Shown here piece by piece: positions 5,108 to 52,282 of a stretch of DNA of 64,000 nt. Source of the DNA: Candidatus Omnitrophota bacterium (GTDB lineage: Bacteria > Omnitrophota > Gorgyraeia > Gygaellales > Profunditerraquicolaceae); the NCBI GenBank assembly GCA_016208765.1, contig JACQXK010000009.1, positions 20,819 to 84,818 of the forward strand. Direction: 5' to 3'. Position 1 is the first letter of the stretch. Every line of letters starts with the position of its first letter. The translations under genes and the position numbers were made by a program. Below the pieces are notes generated by a model. It was not told where the DNA came from and did no database searches. It saw only the letters and a list, made by a program, of their open reading frames with translations.

Positions 5108-5456
5108 AAAAAGCGGTTTCTAGCCAGTTTGATTTCATATTAAAAGTATGGTATACTTTTTACAGGAAAGAGGAAAAATTTAATCCCTGCGGTGCGCGTT
5201 GGAGATTTTGATAATTATTGAACCAACATTATTATCAAGGGAGCCCAGAATTCCGCGACGGTTTTCCGTACAGGAGAGGGCACCCACCTGAAACCAACCG
5301 GTTCAGATGTCAACCCAACGGCATTTCCGCGGGGATTTTTTATTGAGGTCACAACTTATGGAGGGAGCAACGCGAACGAACATAAGTTGCAGCGAAGCGT
5401 CCGCGAATTAATACCTCTTCCGCCATATTGGGGGAAGAGGTATATTCATACCCACT

Positions 5457-6782
5457 ATGTCAGATCTTTTCAACGAAGAACAAAACCATAATAATTATAA
5501 AGAGTTGCCGCTTGCAGTGCGTATGCGTCCGCGCACTTTAGAGGAATTTGCCGGCCAGGGGCATATTTTAGGTAAAGGCAAACTTTTGCGCCGTGCAATT
5601 GAAGCTGACCGCCTGAGTTCGCTTGTTTTATTCGGGCCTCCTGGATGCGGGAAAACTTCCCTCGCCTGGTGTATTGCCAATGTTACCAAGGCTCATTATT
5701 TTGCTATTAATGCCGCTACTTCTAATGTTGAGGAGCTGCGTAAAATCATTGCCGCAGTAAAGCTGCGCAGAAAGAATACCGGTAAAAGAAGTATTTTATT
5801 TATTGATGAGATACATCGTTTTAATAAGTCCCAGCAGGATTGTTTGTTGCCGGACGTAGAAGAGGGGAACCCGATTTTAATCGGAGCCACTGTGCACAAC
5901 CCGTATTTTTCTCTAACCTCGGCTCTTTTATCGCGGTCGTTAGTTTGTGAATTAAAGGGTTTAAGCCAAAAAGAGATTGTCCAGGTTTTGAATTCGGCGC
6001 TAAAGGATAAAGAGCGCGGTTTCGGAAACTTAAAAATTAATTTAGATCCTCAGGCGCTGGAATTTTTAGCTAAGACCTGCGAAGGGGATGCCCGTCGGGC
6101 GCTTAGCGCTTTGGAGATCGGGGTCTTAACCACACAAAATAACCAAGACGGGAATATTGAAATCAATTTAGAAGTAGCTGCTGAGTCAATTCAGAAAAAG
6201 CCGGTGGTATATGATAATGCCGGAGATGCGCATTATGACACTGCCTCGGCATTTATTAAATCTATGCGCGGTTCCGACCCGGATGCGGCAATTTATTGGA
6301 TGGCGAAAATGCTCTATGCCGGGGAGGATCCGCGTTTTATCGCGCGCAGGATTTGTATTTTAGCTGCTGAAGATGTAGGCAACGCCGACCCTTTGGCCCT
6401 GGTGCTGGCCAATGCAGCGCTTGAGGTGGCTGAGTTTGTGGGGATGCCGGAGGCAAGGATACCTTTGGCGCAGGCTTGTATTTATGTGTCTTGCGCGCCA
6501 AAATCAAACGCAAGCTATATGGCTATTGACAAAGCCTACAAAGATATAGAAAATGAAAGATTGCAGGAGGTTCCTGAGCATCTTAAGGATGCCTCTTATA
6601 AAGGAGCGGAAAAATTAGGCCATGGCAAAGGATATAGGTACGCGCATGATTATCCTGGCCATTATGTGGACCAGCAATATACGCCTAAGGGCGTGAAATA
6701 TTATGAACCGACGGAAATGGGCTTTGAGGCAAAGATCAAGGAGAGAATGAAAAAACTAAAAAAACAAGGAGAGAAAGAATGA
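5457..6782 (+). CDS. rarA: replication-associated recombination protein A (AAA+ ATPase, MgsA/WRNIP1 family)
   Basis: Walker A LFGPPGCGKTSLA, Walker B ILFIDEIHRFNKSQQD and a C-terminal MgsA-type helical domain. Confidence 0.85.
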   Translation: MSDLFNEEQNHNNYKELPLAVRMRPRTLEEFAGQGHILGKGKLLRRAIEADRLSSLVLFGPPGCGKTSLAWCIANVTKAHYFAINAATSNVEELRKIIAAVKLRRKNTGKRSILFIDEIHRFNKSQQDCLLPDVEEGNPILIGATVHNPYFSLTSALLSRSLVCELKGLSQKEIVQVLNSALKDKERGFGNLKINLDPQALEFLAKTCEGDARRALSALEIGVLTTQNNQDGNIEINLEVAAESIQKKPVVYDNAGDAHYDTASAFIKSMRGSDPDAAIYWMAKMLYAGEDPRFIARRICILAAEDVGNADPLALVLANAALEVAEFVGMPEARIPLAQACIYVSCAPKSNASYMAIDKAYKDIENERLQEVPEHLKDASYKGAEKLGHGKGYRYAHDYPGHYVDQQYTPKGVKYYEPTEMGFEAKIKERMKKLKKQGEKE

Positions 6783-7237
6783 AGAAAATAATTGCAGTGG
6801 TTTGCAGTGCATTTATGATGGTAGCTACTTTAGGTTGCCAAAGCAATAAAACACGGGTAGCAGAAGGTTCGGTAATAGGAGGATTGTTGGGCGGGGCTGC
6901 AGGCGGCATTATCGGGCACCAGAGCGGACACGGCGGAGAAGGCGCTGCAATTGGGATAGCAGCCGGGGCATTGACCGGTGCGCTCATTGGAAGCCAGATC
7001 AACAAACCTGCACAAACAGAAACTGCTGCGCAGGCACAACCGCAGCAGGCAGCTAATCCCAACCAGATGACCCTCCAGCAGGTAGTGGATTTATCCAAGC
7101 AGGGGGTGAGTGAGACGGTGATTATTGATAAACTCAAATCTTCAAATTCAAAATTTAATTTAACCCAGGCTGATATTGATTACCTAAAACAACAAAAAGT
7201 CCCACAGAGTGTTATTGACGTAATGTCAGGAAAATGA
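6779..7237 (+). CDS. glycine-zipper lipoprotein (SlyB/17-kDa-antigen-like N-terminus)
   Basis: Lipobox (ATLGC) followed by a GxxxG-rich glycine-zipper segment and a Q/A-rich linker. Its ATGA start/stop overlap with the next gene suggests translational coupling. Confidence 0.5.
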
Positions 7238-10200
7238 GCACAATGCTTTTAATTGCGATTACCGGCGGAGTGGTGATGATAGGGTATGCGTTATATTCCA
7301 TATTCATCCCCGGCTCCGAAACAAATGAAAAGAAGACGGGGGGGAAGAATTTTTCTGCTCAGGCGGCACTTGTTGTTAATGAGCAAAAAGAGCAAAAGGC
7401 GCAAAAACTTCAGGGGCAAATGAATGTTTTAGAAAAAGAGCTGGTGCGTATTCAGGCAGAAAGCGCTCAGGAAAAGCTGGACATGGAATTGGCGAAAAAG
7501 AAAGAAGCGGAATTAGAATCAGAACTCTTGCGCAGGCAGGAATGGGTGTCTAAATCCGAAGGGATGTTGAAAAAGGTAAAAGATGAAAACCTGGAATTAA
7601 GAAAACATTTTCTGGTTAAGGAGAATCTTTTAGAGGAGGAGTTTGCCAAAAATGTTAATCTGGCTAAAGAAGCTCGTCTGCTTAATGAAAAGATTGCGGC
7701 ATTAGATAAAGAGTTAAAAGAAAAAGCAGAGCAAATTGAGATCCAGAAACATCAAATAGAAAAATACCTAAAAGAGAATAAAGAGCAGTCAGGAATTATT
7801 GCGCAACAAAAAAAGAAGGAAGAATCCAGCGAATGGGTGCCAAAGCAGGATTTTAATAAGCTTAATGAGGAGTATACTGAATTAGAAAAAGACCTGGAAG
7901 CGCGCGATGAGAAACTGCGTATTTTTGCCGAGGAGATCACGCATTTAAAACAGCAGTTAGCTGATAAAAAAATTGCTCAGCCTGTAAAAGAAGAAGTCAT
8001 TATTGAGGAAGCTCCTGTTGAAGAGGTTATCATCAAGGAGCCTGTTGTTCCTGAGGTTCAGGTTGTTGAGCCAGCTCCGGAAAAAGGAGTTTCTCTTGAA
8101 GTTGCAAATGTAGTTGAATCAAATATAGAGGAAGTAACACCGGCTCCTGTTATTGAAGAAAAACCCGCTGAAGAAATACACGAAGAGCCGGAAAAAGAAG
8201 CTAAGAAAAAAGAAGGCGAGTTGCTTCCGGCGGTTAACCTGGAAAAACTGCGTAATATCGGCATCATGGCGCATATTGATGCCGGAAAGACCACCCTTAC
8301 CGAGCGCATCCTTTTTTATACAGGTAAATCTCACAAGATCGGCGAGGTGCACGAGGGCGCTACGCAAATGGATTGGATGAAACAGGAGAGAGAGCGGGGC
8401 ATTACTATTACTGCGGCGGCAACGACTTGTTTCTGGAACAATTACCGCATAAATATTATTGATACTCCGGGGCATGTGGATTTTACAGTGGAAGTGGAAA
8501 GGTCTTTGCGTGTTTTAGACGGGGCAGTGGCAGTGTTTTGCGCTGTAGGAGGCGTGGAACCGCAATCTGAAACTGTGTGGCACCAGTCAAATAAATATAA
8601 TGTTCCCAAGATCGCATTTGTAAATAAAATGGACCGTACAGGAGCTGACTTTTATGCAGTGCTTAAAGGGATAGAACATGATTTGGGAGGAAATGTTATC
8701 CCTCTTGAGGTTCCCATTGGAAGTGAAGATAACTTCCAGGGGGTGGTGGACTTGATTGAAATGAAGGCATATTATTATATTGAAGAAACGCAGGGGAAAG
8801 ATTTTCGTATCGCAGAAATTCCCGCAGAATACCAGGAGAAGGCCAGGGAATACCGCAAGATTTTAGTAGAAAAGGCTGCGAGCTTTGATGAGGCGCTTAC
8901 TCAAAAATTCCTTGAGGCGGAAAGCTCCATAACTACTGAAGAAATTGTAGCAGCAATCCGTAAGGGAACAATTGCCAATAAAGGCGTGCCTGTTTTGTGC
9001 GGTGCGGCGTTTAAGAATAAAGGTATTCAGAAACTGCTTGATGCGGTAAATCTATTTTTGCCCTCTCCGTTAGATCTACCTGCGGTAACCGGGCACGACC
9101 CCGAGGACAAGGAAAAGGAATTTTTGCGCCGGCCGGTGATTGAAGAACCATTCTCCGGGTTGGCTTTTAAAGTTCAGGCAGATCCGCATATGGGAAAATT
9201 AGTTTATGTGCGGGTCTATTCAGGGGTGTTAAATACAGGAACGTATATTTTAAATTCTACAGTTGACAAGAGAGAGCGCGTCGGAAGGATTGTGCGCATG
9301 CATGCTAATCAAAGAGAAAATATTGATTACGCCTGCGCCGGAGATATTGTAGCGGTTGTCGGTTTATCAAATACAATTACAGGGCACACGCTTTGCGACC
9401 CGGGTTACCCGATACTTTTAGAAGCAATCCAGTTTCCTGTGCCGGTTGTGTCATTGAGTATTGCTCCAAAGAGCCGCTCGGATCAGGATAAATTAGGAAG
9501 GGGCCTTGCCAAGCTTGCCGAAGAGGACCCGACGTTCCTGGTGCAAAGCGACGAGGAAACCAAAGAAACAATTTTGACCGGGATGGGAGAGTTGCATTTG
9601 GAGATTATCGTTGACAGGCTTAAGGAGGAGTTTGGGGTAGAGGCAATTGTGGGACAGCCTAAGGTTGCTTATCGCGAGACGATTATGGAGCCTGCCCAAG
9701 GGGAGAGCAAATATATCAAGCAATCCGGAGGCCGCGGGCAGTATGGGCATGTAATGCTGCGTCTTACTCCGCAAACTGCGGGAGAAGGATTTGAATTTGT
9801 AGATAGTATCAGAGGAGGAGCGATCCCGCGGTCATTTATCCCGGCAGTAGAAAAAGGCGTGATTGAAGCAATGCAAAAGGGCGCGTTTGCAGGTTTTCCT
9901 GTTGTGGATGTAAAGGTTGATCTTTATGACGGATCATTTCACGAGGTGGACTCTTCGGAAATCGCCTTTAAGATGGCTGCGATACTCGGGTTTAAGGAAA
10001 TATTTATGCGGGCAAAACCAATTCTTTTAGAGCCCTACATGTCTCTTGAGGTGAGCACTCTTGAGGAGCATGTGAATGGTTGTGTGGGTTTTATTTGTTC
10101 TCGGCGGGGAAAGATTATTAATATTGATGTAAAGGGTAAACAGAAAGTAATTTCTGCTGAGGTGCCCCTTGCGGAAATGTTTGGTTATGTTAGCAGTTTT

Positions 10201-10317
10201 CGTTCTCTAACCAGCGGACGCGCAAACGCGACCATGGAATTCTCCAAATACATGCAGGTGCCGCATGAAATCGCCCAGAAGATCATTGAGGAAAAACAGG
10301 CTAAGGAAAAGAAGTAA
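7234..10317 (+). CDS. elongation factor G paralog with ~330-aa N-terminal TM + coiled-coil + acidic/Pro-rich extension
   Basis: From ~aa 335 there are canonical EF-G motifs ([28 protein letters not shown]) and domains II-V. Upstream, in the same frame with no stop, are a TM helix (aa 5-25), a K/E-rich coiled coil and an [12 protein letters not shown] repeat region. It is not in an rpsL-rpsG-tuf context. Confidence 0.8.
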
Positions 10318-10338
10318 GATTTAGGGCGTCAAGGCATA

Positions 10339-10466
10339 TTTCTCGCAGCACCGCTTGCCCCGCCCCAGCGTGGCGGGGCTGCGCTCGGGCGAAAACTTTT
10401 GCTCTGCCAGACTTCGTTATAGCGGTGCAACCGTGCCCGCAAAAGTTTTCTAACGTGCTGCTCGAA
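10339..10466. repeat. structured intergenic repeat element, copy A (nested inverted repeats; second copy at 51984-52108)
   Basis: ~85% identical to 51984-52108. Terminal arms are ttctcgcagcac / gtgctgctcgaa, with internal stems ccccgcc-ccagcgt-ggcgggg and gaaaacttttgc...gcaaaagttttc. Confidence 0.7.
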
Positions 10467-10494
10467 ATATACCTTGTCACCTCTTAGTTGATAT

Positions 10495-20571: not shown

Positions 20572-21369
20572 GTGTTTCAGGTAAAGGCAAAAATAATTCA
20601 AAACAAACAGGTTAAAAAGAATTTCTTTCATTTGTTGGTGGATGCCCCGGAGATTGCCGGTAAAGCATTGCCCGGGCAATTTTTAAATATCAAGGTTAGC
20701 GATAATTTAGAGCCTTTGCTGCGCAGGCCGCTCGGAGTGCATCGTGTCAGTAAAAATAACATAGCAATGCTTTATGAAGTTGTCGGAAATGGAACGCAGA
20801 TTTTATCGCAAAGAAAAGCCGGGGAATATTTGGATATTATCGGCCCCTTGGGGAATGGTTTTGATTATCAGTCACCTGTCACCTGTCACCTGTCACCTGT
20901 GTTAGTTGCTGGTGGTATGGGGGTGGCTCCGTTATTATTTCTTGCGGATTTTTTAGCCCACAGTAAAAGTTTTAAAAGCTTAGTTTTTATCGGAGCCAAA
21001 ACAAAAAGCCAGTTGACTTGCGTGCAGGAATTTAGAGAATTAGGTTGCAAAGTAAAGATTGCCACCGACGACGGTTCAATGGGGTTTAAGGGCAGAGTTT
21101 CAGATCTTTTAACACATTTTCTACAGGCGACAGGAGACAGAAGACAGGCGACAATATTTAGCTGCGGCCCGCGGCCTATGCTTAAGGCAGTATCAGAAAT
21201 TTCCAGGAAGTTTAAGATTCCTGCGCAGATCTCTCTTGAAGAGCATATGAGTTGCGGCATAGGGGCTTGTATGGGGTGCGTGGTTCAAACCACAAGCGGC
21301 TACAAGAGAATTTGTAAAGAGGGCCCGGTTTTTCACGCAGATGAAATTGTCTGGGAGAGGGAGAAATGA
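20572..21369 (+). CDS. pyrK: dihydroorotate dehydrogenase (class 1B) electron-transfer subunit; contains two heptamer-repeat insertions
   Basis: FAD/NAD(P)-binding ferredoxin-reductase fold (RRPLGV, GGMGVAPL) and a C-terminal 2Fe-2S motif CGIGACMGC. It is adjacent to pyrD. Confidence 0.85.
   Translation: MFQVKAKIIQNKQVKKNFFHLLVDAPEIAGKALPGQFLNIKVSDNLEPLLRRPLGVHRVSKNNIAMLYEVVGNGTQILSQRKAGEYLDIIGPLGNGFDYQSPVTCHLSPVLVAGGMGVAPLLFLADFLAHSKSFKSLVFIGAKTKSQLTCVQEFRELGCKVKIATDDGSMGFKGRVSDLLTHFLQATGDRRQATIFSCGPRPMLKAVSEISRKFKIPAQISLEEHMSCGIGACMGCVVQTTSGYKRICKEGPVFHADEIVWEREK
20871..20901. repeat. in-frame heptamer tandem array (GTCACCT x4) inside pyrK
   Basis: gtcacctgtcacctgtcacctgtcacctgtg encodes SPVTCHLSPV; member of the CAGGCGA/TCGCCTG heptamer family. 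Confidence 0.8.
21124..21151. repeat. in-frame heptamer tandem array (CAGGCGA-CAGGAGA-CAGAAGA-CAGGCGA) inside pyrK, opposite orientation to the first
   Basis: caggcgacaggagacagaagacaggcga encodes QATGDRRQAT. Confidence 0.8.
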
Positions 21370-21726: not shown

Positions 21727-22719
21727 ATGATAACTAATTTAACTGTAAATATTGGGAAGTTAAAATTAGAAAACCCTGTTATGGTTTGCTCCGGTACCTT
21801 TGGGTATGCCGGGGAGTTTAAGGATTTCTTGCCGCTTAAGAAGTTAGGGGCGATAGTAACCAAGACAATTACTTTAAATCCGCGGCAGGGGAATTTTCCT
21901 CCACGCACCTGTGAAACTCCGGCAGGAATGTTGAATTCTATTGGTTTGGAGAACCCGGGGTTGGCAGGATTTCTTAATGAAAAGCTTCCAATTTTAAAGA
22001 AAATCGGGGTTCCTGTAATTGTAAGTGTTGCTTCAGAAGGCGGCATAGCTGAATTTGTTAAGGCCGTTTCTGAATTAAACGATTTTAAAGAAGTCGCAGC
22101 TATTGAATTAAATATATCCTGTCCGAATATAGAGTCGCCAGTCACCAGTCACCTGTCGCCAGTCACCGGTCGCCAGTCACCTGTCGCCTGTCGCCGGTTA
22201 CCTGTGTTTAAGAACCGGCGGTTGATCTCCCAAGATCCACAGGCAACCTATCAACTGGTAAAACAAGTGCGCAAGGCAACGAAGAAAACTTTGATCACCA
22301 AATTATCACCTAACGTAACTGATATTTCTGAAATTGCCCTTGCCGCCGAAAATGCAGGAAGTGATGCAGTCAGCTTGATCAATACGCTAATGGGCATGAG
22401 CATTGATACAAAAACCATGAAGCCAAAAGTTGCGGCTGTTATTGCAGGATTAAGCGGGCCGGCAATCAGGCCGGTTGCTGTAAGAATGGTCTGGGAAGTC
22501 TACCAGAAAATTAAACTTCCCATAATAGGCATGGGTGGTATAATTGATACTTCCAGCGCCTTGGAATTTTTTCTGGCAGGCTCTACTGCTATTGGTGTCG
22601 GGACAGCAAATTTTATTGATCCTGCAGCTACAATCAGCATATTGCAGGGCATTAAATCTTATTTACGCAAAAACAGAATAAATAATATCGCTAAATTAAT
22701 CGGGGGATTGAAGGTATGA
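21727..22719 (+). CDS. pyrD: dihydroorotate dehydrogenase catalytic subunit (class 1B); contains a 9-unit heptamer array
   Basis: TIM-barrel DHOD motifs (NPVMVCSGTFGY, NxxSCPN, GGIxxxxxAxEFxLAGSTAIGVGT); partner of pyrK. Confidence 0.9.
   Translation: MITNLTVNIGKLKLENPVMVCSGTFGYAGEFKDFLPLKKLGAIVTKTITLNPRQGNFPPRTCETPAGMLNSIGLENPGLAGFLNEKLPILKKIGVPVIVSVASEGGIAEFVKAVSELNDFKEVAAIELNISCPNIESPVTSHLSPVTGRQSPVACRRLPVFKNRRLISQDPQATYQLVKQVRKATKKTLITKLSPNVTDISEIALAAENAGSDAVSLINTLMGMSIDTKTMKPKVAAVIAGLSGPAIRPVAVRMVWEVYQKIKLPIIGMGGIIDTSSALEFFLAGSTAIGVGTANFIDPAATISILQGIKSYLRKNRINNIAKLIGGLKV
22137..22206. repeat. in-frame heptamer tandem array (9-10 units GTCRCCN) inside pyrD
   Basis: gtcaccagtcacctgtcgccagtcaccggtcgccagtcacctgtcgcctgtcgccggttacctgtg encodes SPVTSHLSPVTGRQSPVACRRLPV between conserved PyrD blocks. 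Confidence 0.85.
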
Positions 22720-41066: not shown

Positions 41067-42135
41067 GAAAATTTTGATGACAGGGAATGAAGCTTTTGCT
41101 AAAGGCGCTTTAGATGCAGGGTGCCGTTTTTATGCCGGCTATCCGATTACCCCGCAAAATGAGCTGCCTGCATATATGGCGTTAAATATGCCGCAGGTTG
41201 GGGGAGTGTTTATTCAGGCTGAGTCGGAGATCGCTGCAATTAATATGGTTTTTGGCGCTTCAGCCGCAGGAGCAAGGTCAATGACTTCTTCTTCAAGCCC
41301 GGGGATAAGCCTTAAGCAGGAAGGGATTTCTTATTTAGCAGGGGCAGAATTACCGTCGGTAATTATTAATGTCATGCGCGCAGGCCCTGGCTTAGGGAAT
41401 ATCTGGCCGTCGCAGTCTGATTATTTTCAGGCCACACGCAGCGCAGGGCACGGGGATAGCCACTGTATTGTCCTAGCGCCTTCTGCGGTGCAGGAGTCAT
41501 ATGATATTATGACGCTGGCGTTTGACCTGGCGGATAAATATCGTAATCCTGTAATGATTATGGGTGATGGTTTGTTGGGGCAGATGATGGAACCTGTTTT
41601 GGCAACTAACCAACGACAGGCGACAGGAGACAGGCGACAGGCGACTAAACCATGGGCAGTAACAGGATGTAAAGGAAGGAAACGCAACATTACCAAATCT
41701 TTTTACTTGCGGGAAGGCGATCTTGAGCAATTTAATATTTTATTACAGAAAAAATACCAAGAAATCCAGGAAAAAGAAGAGCGTTATGAAGGTTTATTTT
41801 TAGAAGATGCGGAATTAGTTTTGGTTGGGTACGGGACAATGTCTAGAATTGCCAAGTCGGCAATGTATAGATTGCGCGAAGAAAATTATAAGATAGGATT
41901 GATCCGGCCAATTACGCTTTGGCCTTTTCCAAAAAAGGTTTTTGAGAGTATGGGGAAAGCTATTTTCCTAGCCGTAGAAATGTCTTATGGGCAGATGGTT
42001 GAAGATGTTAAATTGGCGCTTAATTGCCGTTTTCCTGTGGAATTTCTTGGCCGTTCCGGCGGAGGGGTTGTATCTGAAGAAGATATAATTAATAAAGTGA
42101 AAGGCCTCATAAATAAAACAAACCGAGATGAATAA
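41050..42135 (+). CDS. 2-oxoacid:ferredoxin oxidoreductase alpha subunit; contains an in-frame heptamer array
   Basis: POR/KOR alpha-subunit N-terminal domain (GNEAFAKGALDAGCRFYAGYPITP) and transketolase-C-like region. Confidence 0.8.
   Translation: MKFMNKKILMTGNEAFAKGALDAGCRFYAGYPITPQNELPAYMALNMPQVGGVFIQAESEIAAINMVFGASAAGARSMTSSSSPGISLKQEGISYLAGAELPSVIINVMRAGPGLGNIWPSQSDYFQATRSAGHGDSHCIVLAPSAVQESYDIMTLAFDLADKYRNPVMIMGDGLLGQMMEPVLATNQRQATGDRRQATKPWAVTGCKGRKRNITKSFYLREGDLEQFNILLQKKYQEIQEKEERYEGLFLEDAELVLVGYGTMSRIAKSAMYRLREENYKIGLIRPITLWPFPKKVFESMGKAIFLAVEMSYGQMVEDVKLALNCRFPVEFLGRSGGGVVSEEDIINKVKGLINKTNRDE
41611..41644. repeat. in-frame heptamer tandem array inside the OFOR alpha gene
   Basis: caacgacaggcgacaggagacaggcgacaggcga encodes QRQATGDRRQAT. 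Confidence 0.8.
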
Positions 42136-50448: not shown

Positions 50449-51951
50449 TTAAGAATAAACGCGCAGAAAATTCAGCCAGATAAACAGGCAGATGAGTGTT
50501 AAAAGATATACAGAAAAAACATTTTCGTATTTCGGCGGTTTTTGATTGATGAGAAAGAATTGAATTATTCCTAGTATTGCGCAGGGGATAATAAGTAGCG
50601 GCTCTAAGAAAAGAAATGCCAGCAGGCAGTAGCTAATAAGATAAAATAAGCTGACAAAGATTTTAAGCCACGGCTTAGATTCTATTTCTGTAATATTTAA
50701 ACATCCGGTGAAAAAGACCAGAATATAAAATGAAAAAATATGAGGAAAGCTTAGAATTTCTCCTCCGGAAAAAAGCCAGCCTAACATTACTAATAAGATA
50801 ATATTAAAACAAAGCACTGTTTTGGATAAAATTGGTACGCGGCAAAGTTTTAGCGGCGGGAGAAAATAAATAAAGATGCTTGTTATTGATAGGGCAAAGA
50901 AGAAAAAGGTGGTGAAATTTACTGTAATTGATGAAGCTAGGGCCATGCCAAAGAATAAGGCAATTGCTGTTTTTTTGCCTGCCTGAGGAGGATTAATAAA
51001 AAGTGAGTAAATTGCAAACCCAAGCCAAATCGTGGCTAAAATTAACAGAAATCCTACAAGATTAGAAAATATTATTTTTGCTGCTCCCGCTTGATAAATA
51101 GACATTCCAATAAGAAATAAAAATATAAGCTGGGCTATGGTTTTAATTTTGATTTGCTTAGTGAGCATTTTGAAATATCCGCTTTTTCCAAGGGCAAGAA
51201 GGGTCAATATTTCAATAAAAATAAAGAGCGCCAGAAAACGGATTATTGTAATGATAGAGATCCCGTCCTGGCAGCTTGAGCAGGTGAATTTGGCTAATAA
51301 CGGAATAATGGAGGCTGCTAAAAGCGCAAAATATATTGCTATTGCTCCAAAGAGAGTCTTTACAAGGCTTTTTGTCTTAGTTAGAAAATATAAAACCGAT
51401 AAAATCACTGATAGTAGCGCAGTAATTGTTTCTCCGGGTGTGATGTTTGCCGAGAAGAAAAAGAGATTATACAACTTTGTAGGATGAACGTAGCGGATGT
51501 CAATGCCTTTACCTTTTGAAATTATCAGGTCAATGATCGGGGCAAAAATCCCTATTGCACAAACGAGGCTTAGCGCAGAGCGCAGCGATTTTTGAATTAT
51601 ATCTCCGGTAATTAAGGTAAAAATAATAGAAAATAATAATACAGAAGCTATCCAGAAAAGTGTATAGTGGAAAAATGATATCCCGATACTGACACTGCTC
51701 ATTAACAGGTTTGGATCAGAAGCAGAAAATATAGAGAACGGGACCATTGCTGTATCTGAAAATATTTCCAAGAAATTGCGCAGATTGATTATGCCAAGAA
51801 AACTTAAGATATAATAAGTAAGCGGGATATTTTCATCTTGGCTGAAAGAGGTGATTTTCTCTAAGAAGTGTGGAATTTTCATGGGATTAACAAAATTATC
51901 GCGGCAAAACAGATGATTGTCAAGCCATCTTTTGTAATAAGTCCGTGACAA
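50449..51951 (-). CDS. large polytopic membrane protein of unknown function (first gene of the lipid operon)
   Basis: 500 aa with >12 predicted TM helices and no recognisable motif; 8-nt gap to the KAS gene. Confidence 0.5.
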   Translation of the reverse strand: MSRTYYKRWLDNHLFCRDNFVNPMKIPHFLEKITSFSQDENIPLTYYILSFLGIINLRNFLEIFSDTAMVPFSIFSASDPNLLMSSVSIGISFFHYTLFWIASVLLFSIIFTLITGDIIQKSLRSALSLVCAIGIFAPIIDLIISKGKGIDIRYVHPTKLYNLFFFSANITPGETITALLSVILSVLYFLTKTKSLVKTLFGAIAIYFALLAASIIPLLAKFTCSSCQDGISIITIIRFLALFIFIEILTLLALGKSGYFKMLTKQIKIKTIAQLIFLFLIGMSIYQAGAAKIIFSNLVGFLLILATIWLGFAIYSLFINPPQAGKKTAIALFFGMALASSITVNFTTFFFFALSITSIFIYFLPPLKLCRVPILSKTVLCFNIILLVMLGWLFSGGEILSFPHIFSFYILVFFTGCLNITEIESKPWLKIFVSLFYLISYCLLAFLFLEPLLIIPCAILGIIQFFLINQKPPKYENVFSVYLLTLICLFIWLNFLRVYS

Positions 51952-51983
51952 TTTTTAGCAGTAACGGGGTTTGTCTTGTCTTG

Positions 51984-52108
51984 TTCTCGCAGCACCGCTC
52001 GCCTCGACCCAGCGTGTCGGGGCTTCGCTCGGGCGAAAACTCTTGCTCTTCACCGACTTTTAGTCGGGGAAACCGTGCCCGCAAGAGTTTTCTAACGTGC
52101 TGCTCGAA
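51984..52108. repeat. structured intergenic repeat element, copy B
   Basis: Aligns end to end with 10339-10466. Both substitutions in stem 2 (cctcgac/gtcgggg vs ccccgcc/ggcgggg) and in stem 4 (gaaaactcttgc/gcaagagttttc vs gaaaacttttgc/gcaaaagttttc) are compensatory. Confidence 0.7.
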
Positions 52109-52282
52109 TCAAGCCAAGCCATCCGTTATTGTATTATGTAAAGCATGTTATAATCCGATTTTTTCTATTGAAAGCTATACTGTTACGCGATATAATTGGA
52201 CACCTCAAGATTTTGTGAGGGATTATCAATGAATTTAATCCTCTCGAGCGAAGCGAAAGAGGATCTGAGAACCAAATATTTT

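Follow-up and report, generated by a model that had tools for sequence, protein, structure and literature searches.

Introduction

The bcr1 repeat of the Bacillus cereus group, a dispersed intergenic element of ~155 bp, is transcribed, and the structure of its RNA is kept through compensatory changes (PMC3184786). ERIC (IRU), an imperfect palindrome of 127 bp in enterobacteria, has been proposed to act in transcripts, where RNase E cleavage and mRNA decay are affected, while Correia/NEMIS and BOX, from Neisseria and Streptococcus pneumoniae, respectively, are structured and transcribed intergenic repeats, with the Correia hairpins being substrates of RNase III (PMC3184786).

Two copies of a comparable element are present in the window, as we call the whole 64,000-nt stretch of Omnitrophota DNA analysed here. 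With bcr1 this element shares a dispersed intergenic location, a similar size, a distribution that varies between relatives and a fold kept by compensatory changes, apparently at the RNA level. However, bcr1 is flanked by direct repeats of 5 bp and reaches tens to ~100 copies per genome, whereas the Omnitrophota element lacks consistent direct repeats, appears to have a low copy number, forms a three-way junction in which the loops are conserved, and shows no sequence similarity to bcr1. ERIC resembles it in core length (125-127 nt here), in being intergenic in either local context, and in its conservation across genera at loci that are often stable; it is however essentially one long hairpin, while the element from this other phylum is branched, has a conserved asymmetric bulge and is unrelated in sequence. 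The stability of ERIC loci is said to have been described by Wilson and Sharp in 2006. Correia repeats differ in having 26-bp terminal inverted repeats and a TA duplication, both absent here. BOX elements are modular (boxA, boxB and boxC), and this modularity resembles the shared 'handle' and different apical domains of the Omnitrophota families. Orphan non-coding RNA motifs of the Rfam type are also similar, with covarying stems, conserved loops, a length of ~170 nt and a range limited to one phylum, but most of them lack the insertion polymorphism and the multiple unrelated contexts observed here.

Omnitrophota are uncultivated and mostly ultra-small bacteria, and to our knowledge their non-coding repertoire is essentially unannotated. 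On balance, we consider it probable that the family is an insertion-derived dispersed element of a clade within Omnitrophota, with a fold selected at the RNA level in the manner of bcr1, ERIC and BOX.

Results

Two copies of a branched hairpin element

An earlier note on this DNA had described a repeat of ~125 nt in two copies that align end to end. Both copies are borne out (Table 1), with 87% identity over the full alignment, and 91% and 93% in two conserved blocks. The length was however set too short, as the flanks also pair and the structured unit measures ~165-185 nt in both copies. The inverted arms TTCTCGCAGCAC/GTGCTGCTCGAA, taken for the ends of the element, indeed pair and contain a conserved 2x2 TC/TC mismatch, but the pairing runs ~20 bp further out, using sequence specific to each copy (AAGGCATAT/ATATACCTT in copy A, CTTGTCTTG/CAAGCCAAG in copy B). 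Copy-specific flank pairs outside the arms include ATAT/ATAT, CTTG/CAAG, GTGC/GCAC and GCGGG/CCCGC.

The loop CCAGCGT is identical in copies A and B, and the stem sequences quoted in the note were correct. Its statement that every difference within the stems is compensated holds for two of three: true double changes are present in stem 2 (C-G to A-T) and stem 4 (T-A to C-G), but a C-to-T change in stem 2 of copy B is uncompensated and leaves a T.G (G.U) wobble. The centre, which the note regarded as differing between the copies, is variable, but is itself a hairpin (P4) with covarying basal pairs.

The pattern GCAGCAC-N(90-120)-GTGCTGC occurs twice in the window as compared to zero times in 100 shuffles, and the element ends together with the 22-mer GTTTTCTAACGTGCTGCTCGAA are found in the window at copies A and B only, where none would be expected. 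The G+C content of the element is 54-55% (~42% for the window), and copy A begins 6 nt past the stop codon of an EF-G-like gene (10315-10317). A covariance model run with filters off recovered no further copy in the window above noise.

Table 1. Coordinates of the two copies, their parts and adjoining hairpins; positions refer to the window unless a locus is named.
Feature	Position	Strand	Remarks
Copy A, structured unit	10323-10486	+	
Copy A, core	10340-10466	+	
Copy A, 5' outer arm of closing stem P1, AGGGCGTCAAGGCATAT	10323-10339	+	pairs with 10467-10486; arms differ between copies, pairing kept
Copy A, inner P1 5' strand	10340-10352	+	UUC 10340-42, UC of 2x2 loop 10343-44, GCAGCAC 10345-51, junction C
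Copy A, P2 domain	10353-10390	+	weak helix GCUU/GGGC (10353-56 with 10387-90), P2 stem 10357-64 with 10372-79, loop CCAGCGU 10365-71
Copy A, P3 domain	10391-10450	+	P3 stem 10391-10402 with 10439-10450, linker UC 10403-04, hairpin P4 10405-10429, bulge ACCGUGCCC 10430-38
Copy A, junction and inner P1 3' strand	10451-10466	+	UAAC 10451-54; GUGCUGC-UC-GAA 10455-66
Copy A, 3' outer arm of P1, ATATACCTTGTCACCTCTTA	10467-10486	+	partner of 5' outer arm
Copy B, whole inserted segment (231 nt)	51934-52164	+	absent at orthologous site of JACROS contig 6; TTTT at junctions 51930-33 and 52161-64
Copy B, hairpin unit	51954-52137	+	outer extension GCAGUAACGG/CCGUUAUUGU with two G.U pairs
Copy B, core	51984-52108	+	P1 51984-95 with 52097-52108; P2 52001-08 with 52016-23; loop 52009-15; P3 52035-46 with 52081-92; P4 52049-71; bulge 52072-80; UAAC 52093-96
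Family B copy	L032:12040-12275	+	
Family B copy	L029:~5690-5870	-	
Family B copy	L017:~7745-7960	-	
Family B-type arms	L018, L019		round family A element
Third hairpin (~200 nt)	L016:6148-6347	-	adjoins family A copy

Family size and distribution

Collection scans combined with a covariance model, an approach suggested by the earlier note, yielded 16 distinct copies in at least seven Omnitrophota MAGs or metagenomes. The 3' 22-mer alone, searched in one genome per species, returned five loci in four MAGs, all Candidatus Omnitrophota; a metagenome scan using an independent internal block contributed seven additional true copies; and the covariance model detected orthologous and diverged copies in loci retrieved via the neighbouring helicase. 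Scores span 55-198 bits with the first model and 122-194 bits with the second, with E-values down to 1e-54. There are few copies per genome, a rough figure considering the fragmentation of the MAGs. Applied to 73 kb from four other Omnitrophota the covariance model gave no copy, and the second model no extra copies in 281 kb. The viral, plasmid and phage collections contained no family match: three viral scans with conserved blocks returned 14 loci, which stemmed from two 16-mers (the 22-mer gave none) and were all chance matches of 16-18 nt, and family-wide patterns, used in two later viral scans, yielded 20 loci without a model hit in one and zero loci in the other. The metagenome loci L023, L024 and L027 also proved to be chance matches.

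In six loci from different assemblies (L022, L025, L026, L028, L031 and L060) the contig ends inside the element, as expected of a repeat; the element thus breaks metagenome assemblies, and its annotation would help the finishing of MAGs. With only two copies in the window and several others at contig ends, chance similarity or an assembly artefact might be suspected. However, copies with the scores given above were recovered from independent assemblies (NCBI, JGI, ENA and Logan), with orthologous copies in syntenic positions, which already refutes this explanation, and we consider its probability negligible.

Consensus fold, covariation and selection

The consensus fold of the family (family A) is a three-way junction of P1, P2 and P3, with P4 located inside P3. 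The closing stem P1 extends over ~25-30 bp and holds a conserved 2x2 UC/UC internal loop; this module (UUCUCGC/GCUCGAA) is present in nearly all family A copies and also in a second family, family B. The hairpin loop of P2 has the consensus CCRGCGN, and P3 reads GAAAACUYUUGC/GCARAGUUUUC. Within P3 are the variable P4, with U-A as closing pair, and a 9-nt bulge of consensus (A/U)CCRUGCCC, elsewhere in the analysis given as ACCRUGCCC, invariant apart from R at position 4. A UAAC junction joins P3 to the 3' strand of P1.

In a model-fitted alignment of 17 sequences the fold comprises 48 pairs, 25 of which are changed on both sides, and 95.4% of cells are paired. None of 500 shuffles was as good, although the aligned sequences are kin and such controls therefore overstate significance. 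Sliding the 3' partner by 1-3 columns lowers the pairing to 37-49%, and an unfitted alignment (MAFFT with RNAalifold) retains 44 pairs, of which 13 show double changes. All cells of the nine P2 pairs are paired (100%), with seven pairs changed on both sides; in P3 96.9% of cells are paired and 6 of 12 pairs doubly changed; and base pairs of P4 covary as well (GC, CG, UA). The proposal of the earlier note that secondary structure is under selection is hence supported: rather than diverging at random, the new copies keep its stems 2 and 4 paired (100% and 97%, with double changes in 7/9 and 6/12 pairs).

L033 and L032 have diverged so far that most of P1 and P3 differs in sequence, yet both stems still pair and the loops are unchanged; conservation of the unpaired parts (P2 loop, bulge, UC/UC loop and a GCUCU linker) extends even to these two copies. 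Such conserved unpaired parts next to changing stems form a pattern typical of a folded RNA, and the nearly invariant unpaired nucleotides point to a specific partner. Moreover, position 3 of the P2 loop and position 4 of the bulge switch together (A:G in seven copies, G:A in five, G:G in one and U:G in one), with both the A:G and the G:A state present in all three outer-stem types. This co-change may represent a tertiary contact, or else concerted evolution.

The core of the element is under purifying selection, with orthologous copies being more conserved than the neighbouring genes. While DNA of the window and of the JACROS MAG is ~80% identical, the core of copy A shares 92.9% identity with its ortholog downstream of EF-G in L030, as compared to 81-84% in the flanking genes, and the ortholog displays one compensated change in inner P1 (C-G to U-A). 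Copy B and its ortholog in L028 are 89% identical versus 82% for the adjoining genes.

Insertion behaviour

The site of copy B is filled in a third species (L028) and empty in the JACROS ortholog: aligned to the window, L058 and L059 have ATCTTTT directly next to CTATTGAAAG. This is the only clean empty site available, and relative to it TTTT is found at both junctions of copy B. In L035 and L036, without the element, the EF-G and helicase genes overlap, and the spacer between the helicase and DUF5981 genes is 58 nt in L035 versus ~530 nt in L032, which carries family A and family B elements. By these comparisons, the element has entered compact intergenic sites on more than one occasion.

Presence and absence at orthologous sites, also a hallmark of MITEs, would suit a non-autonomous DNA transposon or another hairpin-dependent mobile DNA, the fold of which is recognised as single-stranded DNA or cruciform by a transposase or recombinase acting in trans, with compensation stemming from that need or from correction of the quasipalindrome by template switching. 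The assembly breaks at copies are compatible with this proposal, as are a G+C content of 0.47-0.60 against ~0.42 for the genome, equally good folding of both strands, and a sub-terminal motif shared by two or three long-hairpin families that cluster or nest. The outermost arms, however, are the least conserved part, differing between copies and being merely complementary, opposite to what is expected of transposase-bound terminal repeats and at variance with the conserved terminal repeats of a classical MITE; the TTCTCGC/GCTCGAA motif is internal and imperfect rather than terminal. Most copies are without target duplications as direct repeats, none being consistent among the flanks, which outside copy B extend as inverted repeats. 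No transposase Pfam domain or parent IS was detected in the ~280 kb of flanks retrieved, plasmid or phage copies were not found, and the loci are stable across species with a core more conserved than the coding flanks. Correction of a palindrome should moreover erase a mismatch, and the UC/UC mismatch kept in nearly all copies therefore argues against it, nor does such correction explain the conserved asymmetric unpaired segments. We regard mobility governed at the DNA level as unlikely, and a classical MITE with terminal inverted repeats fits less well than an insertion-derived repeat selected at the RNA level.

Gene context

The copies are intergenic and reside in unrelated contexts (EF-G/helicase, tRNA-Gln, SecA-like, QueH-like and others), with housekeeping genes as neighbours. 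Approximately half of them follow a co-directional gene, starting 0-60 nt past its stop codon, and the remainder (seven copies) are downstream of a divergent gene, so that a pure 3'-UTR role cannot apply to every copy. In all six known cases with no other element in between, the copy points in the same direction as the downstream gene, copy A (winA) and its ortholog L030 being counted separately. A gene-specific cis-regulator such as a riboswitch or leader, which would be expected at a consistent position upstream of functionally related genes, fits these unrelated contexts less well, and an association with tRNA was dismissed, only copy B and the L028 copy being near a tRNA. TAATAAG was considered as a 5' terminus, but is a common stop-codon context in the genome (16 occurrences on the plus strand of the window) and therefore unreliable.

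The EF-G-like gene upstream of copy A (7234-10317, plus strand) encodes 1027 aa, including an N-terminal extension of ~340 aa that is hydrophobic at its start and contains a long charged stretch resembling a coiled coil; gene calls of this long form, at 989-1018 aa, are also present in four other contigs of Omnitrophota (L033-L036). In L058 (JACROS010000006.1, reverse strand, ~1150-1450) an insert of ~150 nt directly upstream of the intact tRNA-Gln is flanked by 17 nt that repeat the 5' end of this tRNA (TTGCCCTGTCGTCTAAT), an arrangement that looks like an integration scar at the tRNA gene.

Strand, transcription signals and a possible role

Folding of single sequences is equally good on both strands. 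Across the alignment there are 24 G.U versus 7 A.C pairs, 17 of the former being in the weak 4-bp helix; outside this weak helix 2 the ratio is 7 versus 7 and equivocal. P2 and P3 together have four G.U and zero A.C pairs, and the outer extension of copy B adds two more G.U pairs. With the orientation of the copies, these counts are suggestive only, hinting at a plus-strand RNA.

We found neither a conserved promoter nor a conserved terminator that would convincingly belong to the element itself. Neither copy A nor copy B has a terminator-like site, and most copies are without a U run after the 3' arm, as opposed to an intrinsic terminator. Promoter-like sites near copy B point to the tRNA and to the divergent gene. 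Two such sites are situated between copy B and tRNA-Gln (52125-52196, plus strand): TGTTATAAT, an extended -10 promoter-like site inside the 231-nt inserted segment, and TTGAAA-17-TATAAT, which is outside the insert and also preserved where the site is empty. The insertion of copy B may thus have carried in an extra, outward-facing putative promoter.

Could the copies instead be paralogous genes of a free-standing small RNA, spread by gene duplication, in which the three-way junction, with loop and bulge docked, is the functional core of a ribonucleoprotein, aptamer or ribozyme and the closing stem serves as a stalk for processing or stability? The complex asymmetric fold, the highly conserved unpaired nucleotides and the possible tertiary covariation would be in agreement with such genes, as would the low copy number and the loci that are stable across species at ~80% nucleotide identity; the sequence of the closing stem varies freely while pairing is kept, and the seven copies downstream of divergent genes would need a promoter of their own. 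A conserved promoter or terminator was however not found, several copies start 0-60 nt from an upstream stop codon, and no associated protein gene was seen. Furthermore, the clean 231-nt presence/absence with TTTT junctions and the insertion in otherwise overlapping genes indicate insertion rather than tandem or segmental duplication, and nesting in, and pairing with, a second hairpin family would be unusual. We therefore view free-standing small RNA genes as a possible, though rather unlikely, explanation.

For an insertion-derived repeat selected at the RNA level, we infer the following course. The element would be read into RNA in the sense orientation, together with neighbouring genes or from local promoters, and this RNA would fold into the conserved three-way junction, with the UC/UC 'handle', P2, P3, the bulge and the P4 tip. 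Selection would act on the RNA fold and on the unpaired loops, which presumably contact a protein or each other. As a module embedded in transcripts, the element would most likely set transcript ends, processing or stability, for instance by forming, between genes, a structure of the RNase III type or one that blocks exonucleases; such a role has also been proposed for the bcr1, ERIC, BOX and Correia repeats.

Sister hairpin families

Family B is a second conserved long hairpin (~220 nt; folding z-score, -8.7) that shows covariation of its own and has the handle UUUUCUCGC/GCUCGAAAA in common with family A. The two families are arranged tail to tail in L017, L029 and L032, and B-type arms enclose a family A element in L018 and L019. 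A third hairpin (z = -8), adjoining the copy of family A in L016, shares the P3 stem and UAAC junction with family A, is without P2 and has a 104-nt insert.

A bolder proposal is that families A and B form a novel class of mobile elements that are structured and RNA-like, composed of a conserved UC/UC 'handle' read by one dedicated factor and interchangeable complex apical domains, with the three-way junction of family A, its loop and bulge docked, being a possible ribozyme or a fold binding a ligand or protein. Neither terminal inverted repeats nor an enzyme encoded in cis would then be needed for spread, which might proceed via an RNA intermediate or by hairpin-targeted insertion into T-rich sites. 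We hold this to be quite improbable. If the apical domain were catalytic or ligand-binding, it would represent a new RNA class. Two handle-sharing families, nested or tail to tail, also offer a tractable system for studying repeat spread and transcript effects in compact genomes.

Comparison with known classes

Rfam 15 gave no match over the element at the gathering threshold, for the window and eight loci, and relaxing the search to E-values of up to 10 returned only noise at 8-17 bits; the comparison to Rfam families advised in the earlier note thus matched no family, and no known IS end, which the note had named as an alternative identity, was matched either. A literature search returned no description of this element. 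The family appears new, being without a database match, and the combination of a branched fold and a shared handle is unusual for such repeats.

Several classes were considered and set aside. REP/REPIN sequences are G+C-rich palindromes of 20-40 nt, often in inverted pairs and accompanied in the genome by a RAYT (Y1 transposase) gene, as compared to a branched unit of ~170 nt here, the flanks of which showed no RAYT gene. The lengths of the core (121, 125, 127, 128, 132 and 133 nt) are non-multiples of three apart in any candidate frame; a type I toxin mRNA or small protein gene was rejected due to these frame-breaking indels and the lack of a conserved ORF. Retron ncRNA, IS110 bridge RNA and TnpB/IscB omega-RNA were discarded as no reverse transcriptase, recombinase or nuclease is adjacent, the neighbours being housekeeping genes. 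attC, hammerhead, 5S, Y RNA and SRP were supported by neither the sequence nor Rfam. By contrast, dispersed intergenic copies with a fold kept by compensatory changes, as in repeats of the bcr1, ERIC and BOX kind, are what was found.

Other features of the window

Tracts of a 7-nt repeat (GTCRCCN and its complement) are present at 22125-22208, 2505-2539, 20869-20903, 21123-21152 and 41616-41659. The first of these, 84 nt long, is located in the ORF 21727-22719, just after an NISCPN motif, and would add 28 in-frame residues. A 6S RNA (Rfam RF00013, 65.5 bits) was identified at 5181-5339 on the plus strand, flanked by a gene homologous to PheT (B3_4/B5) of L030/L032 and by a gene homologous to the RuvB_N/MgsA-type ATPase of the same loci.
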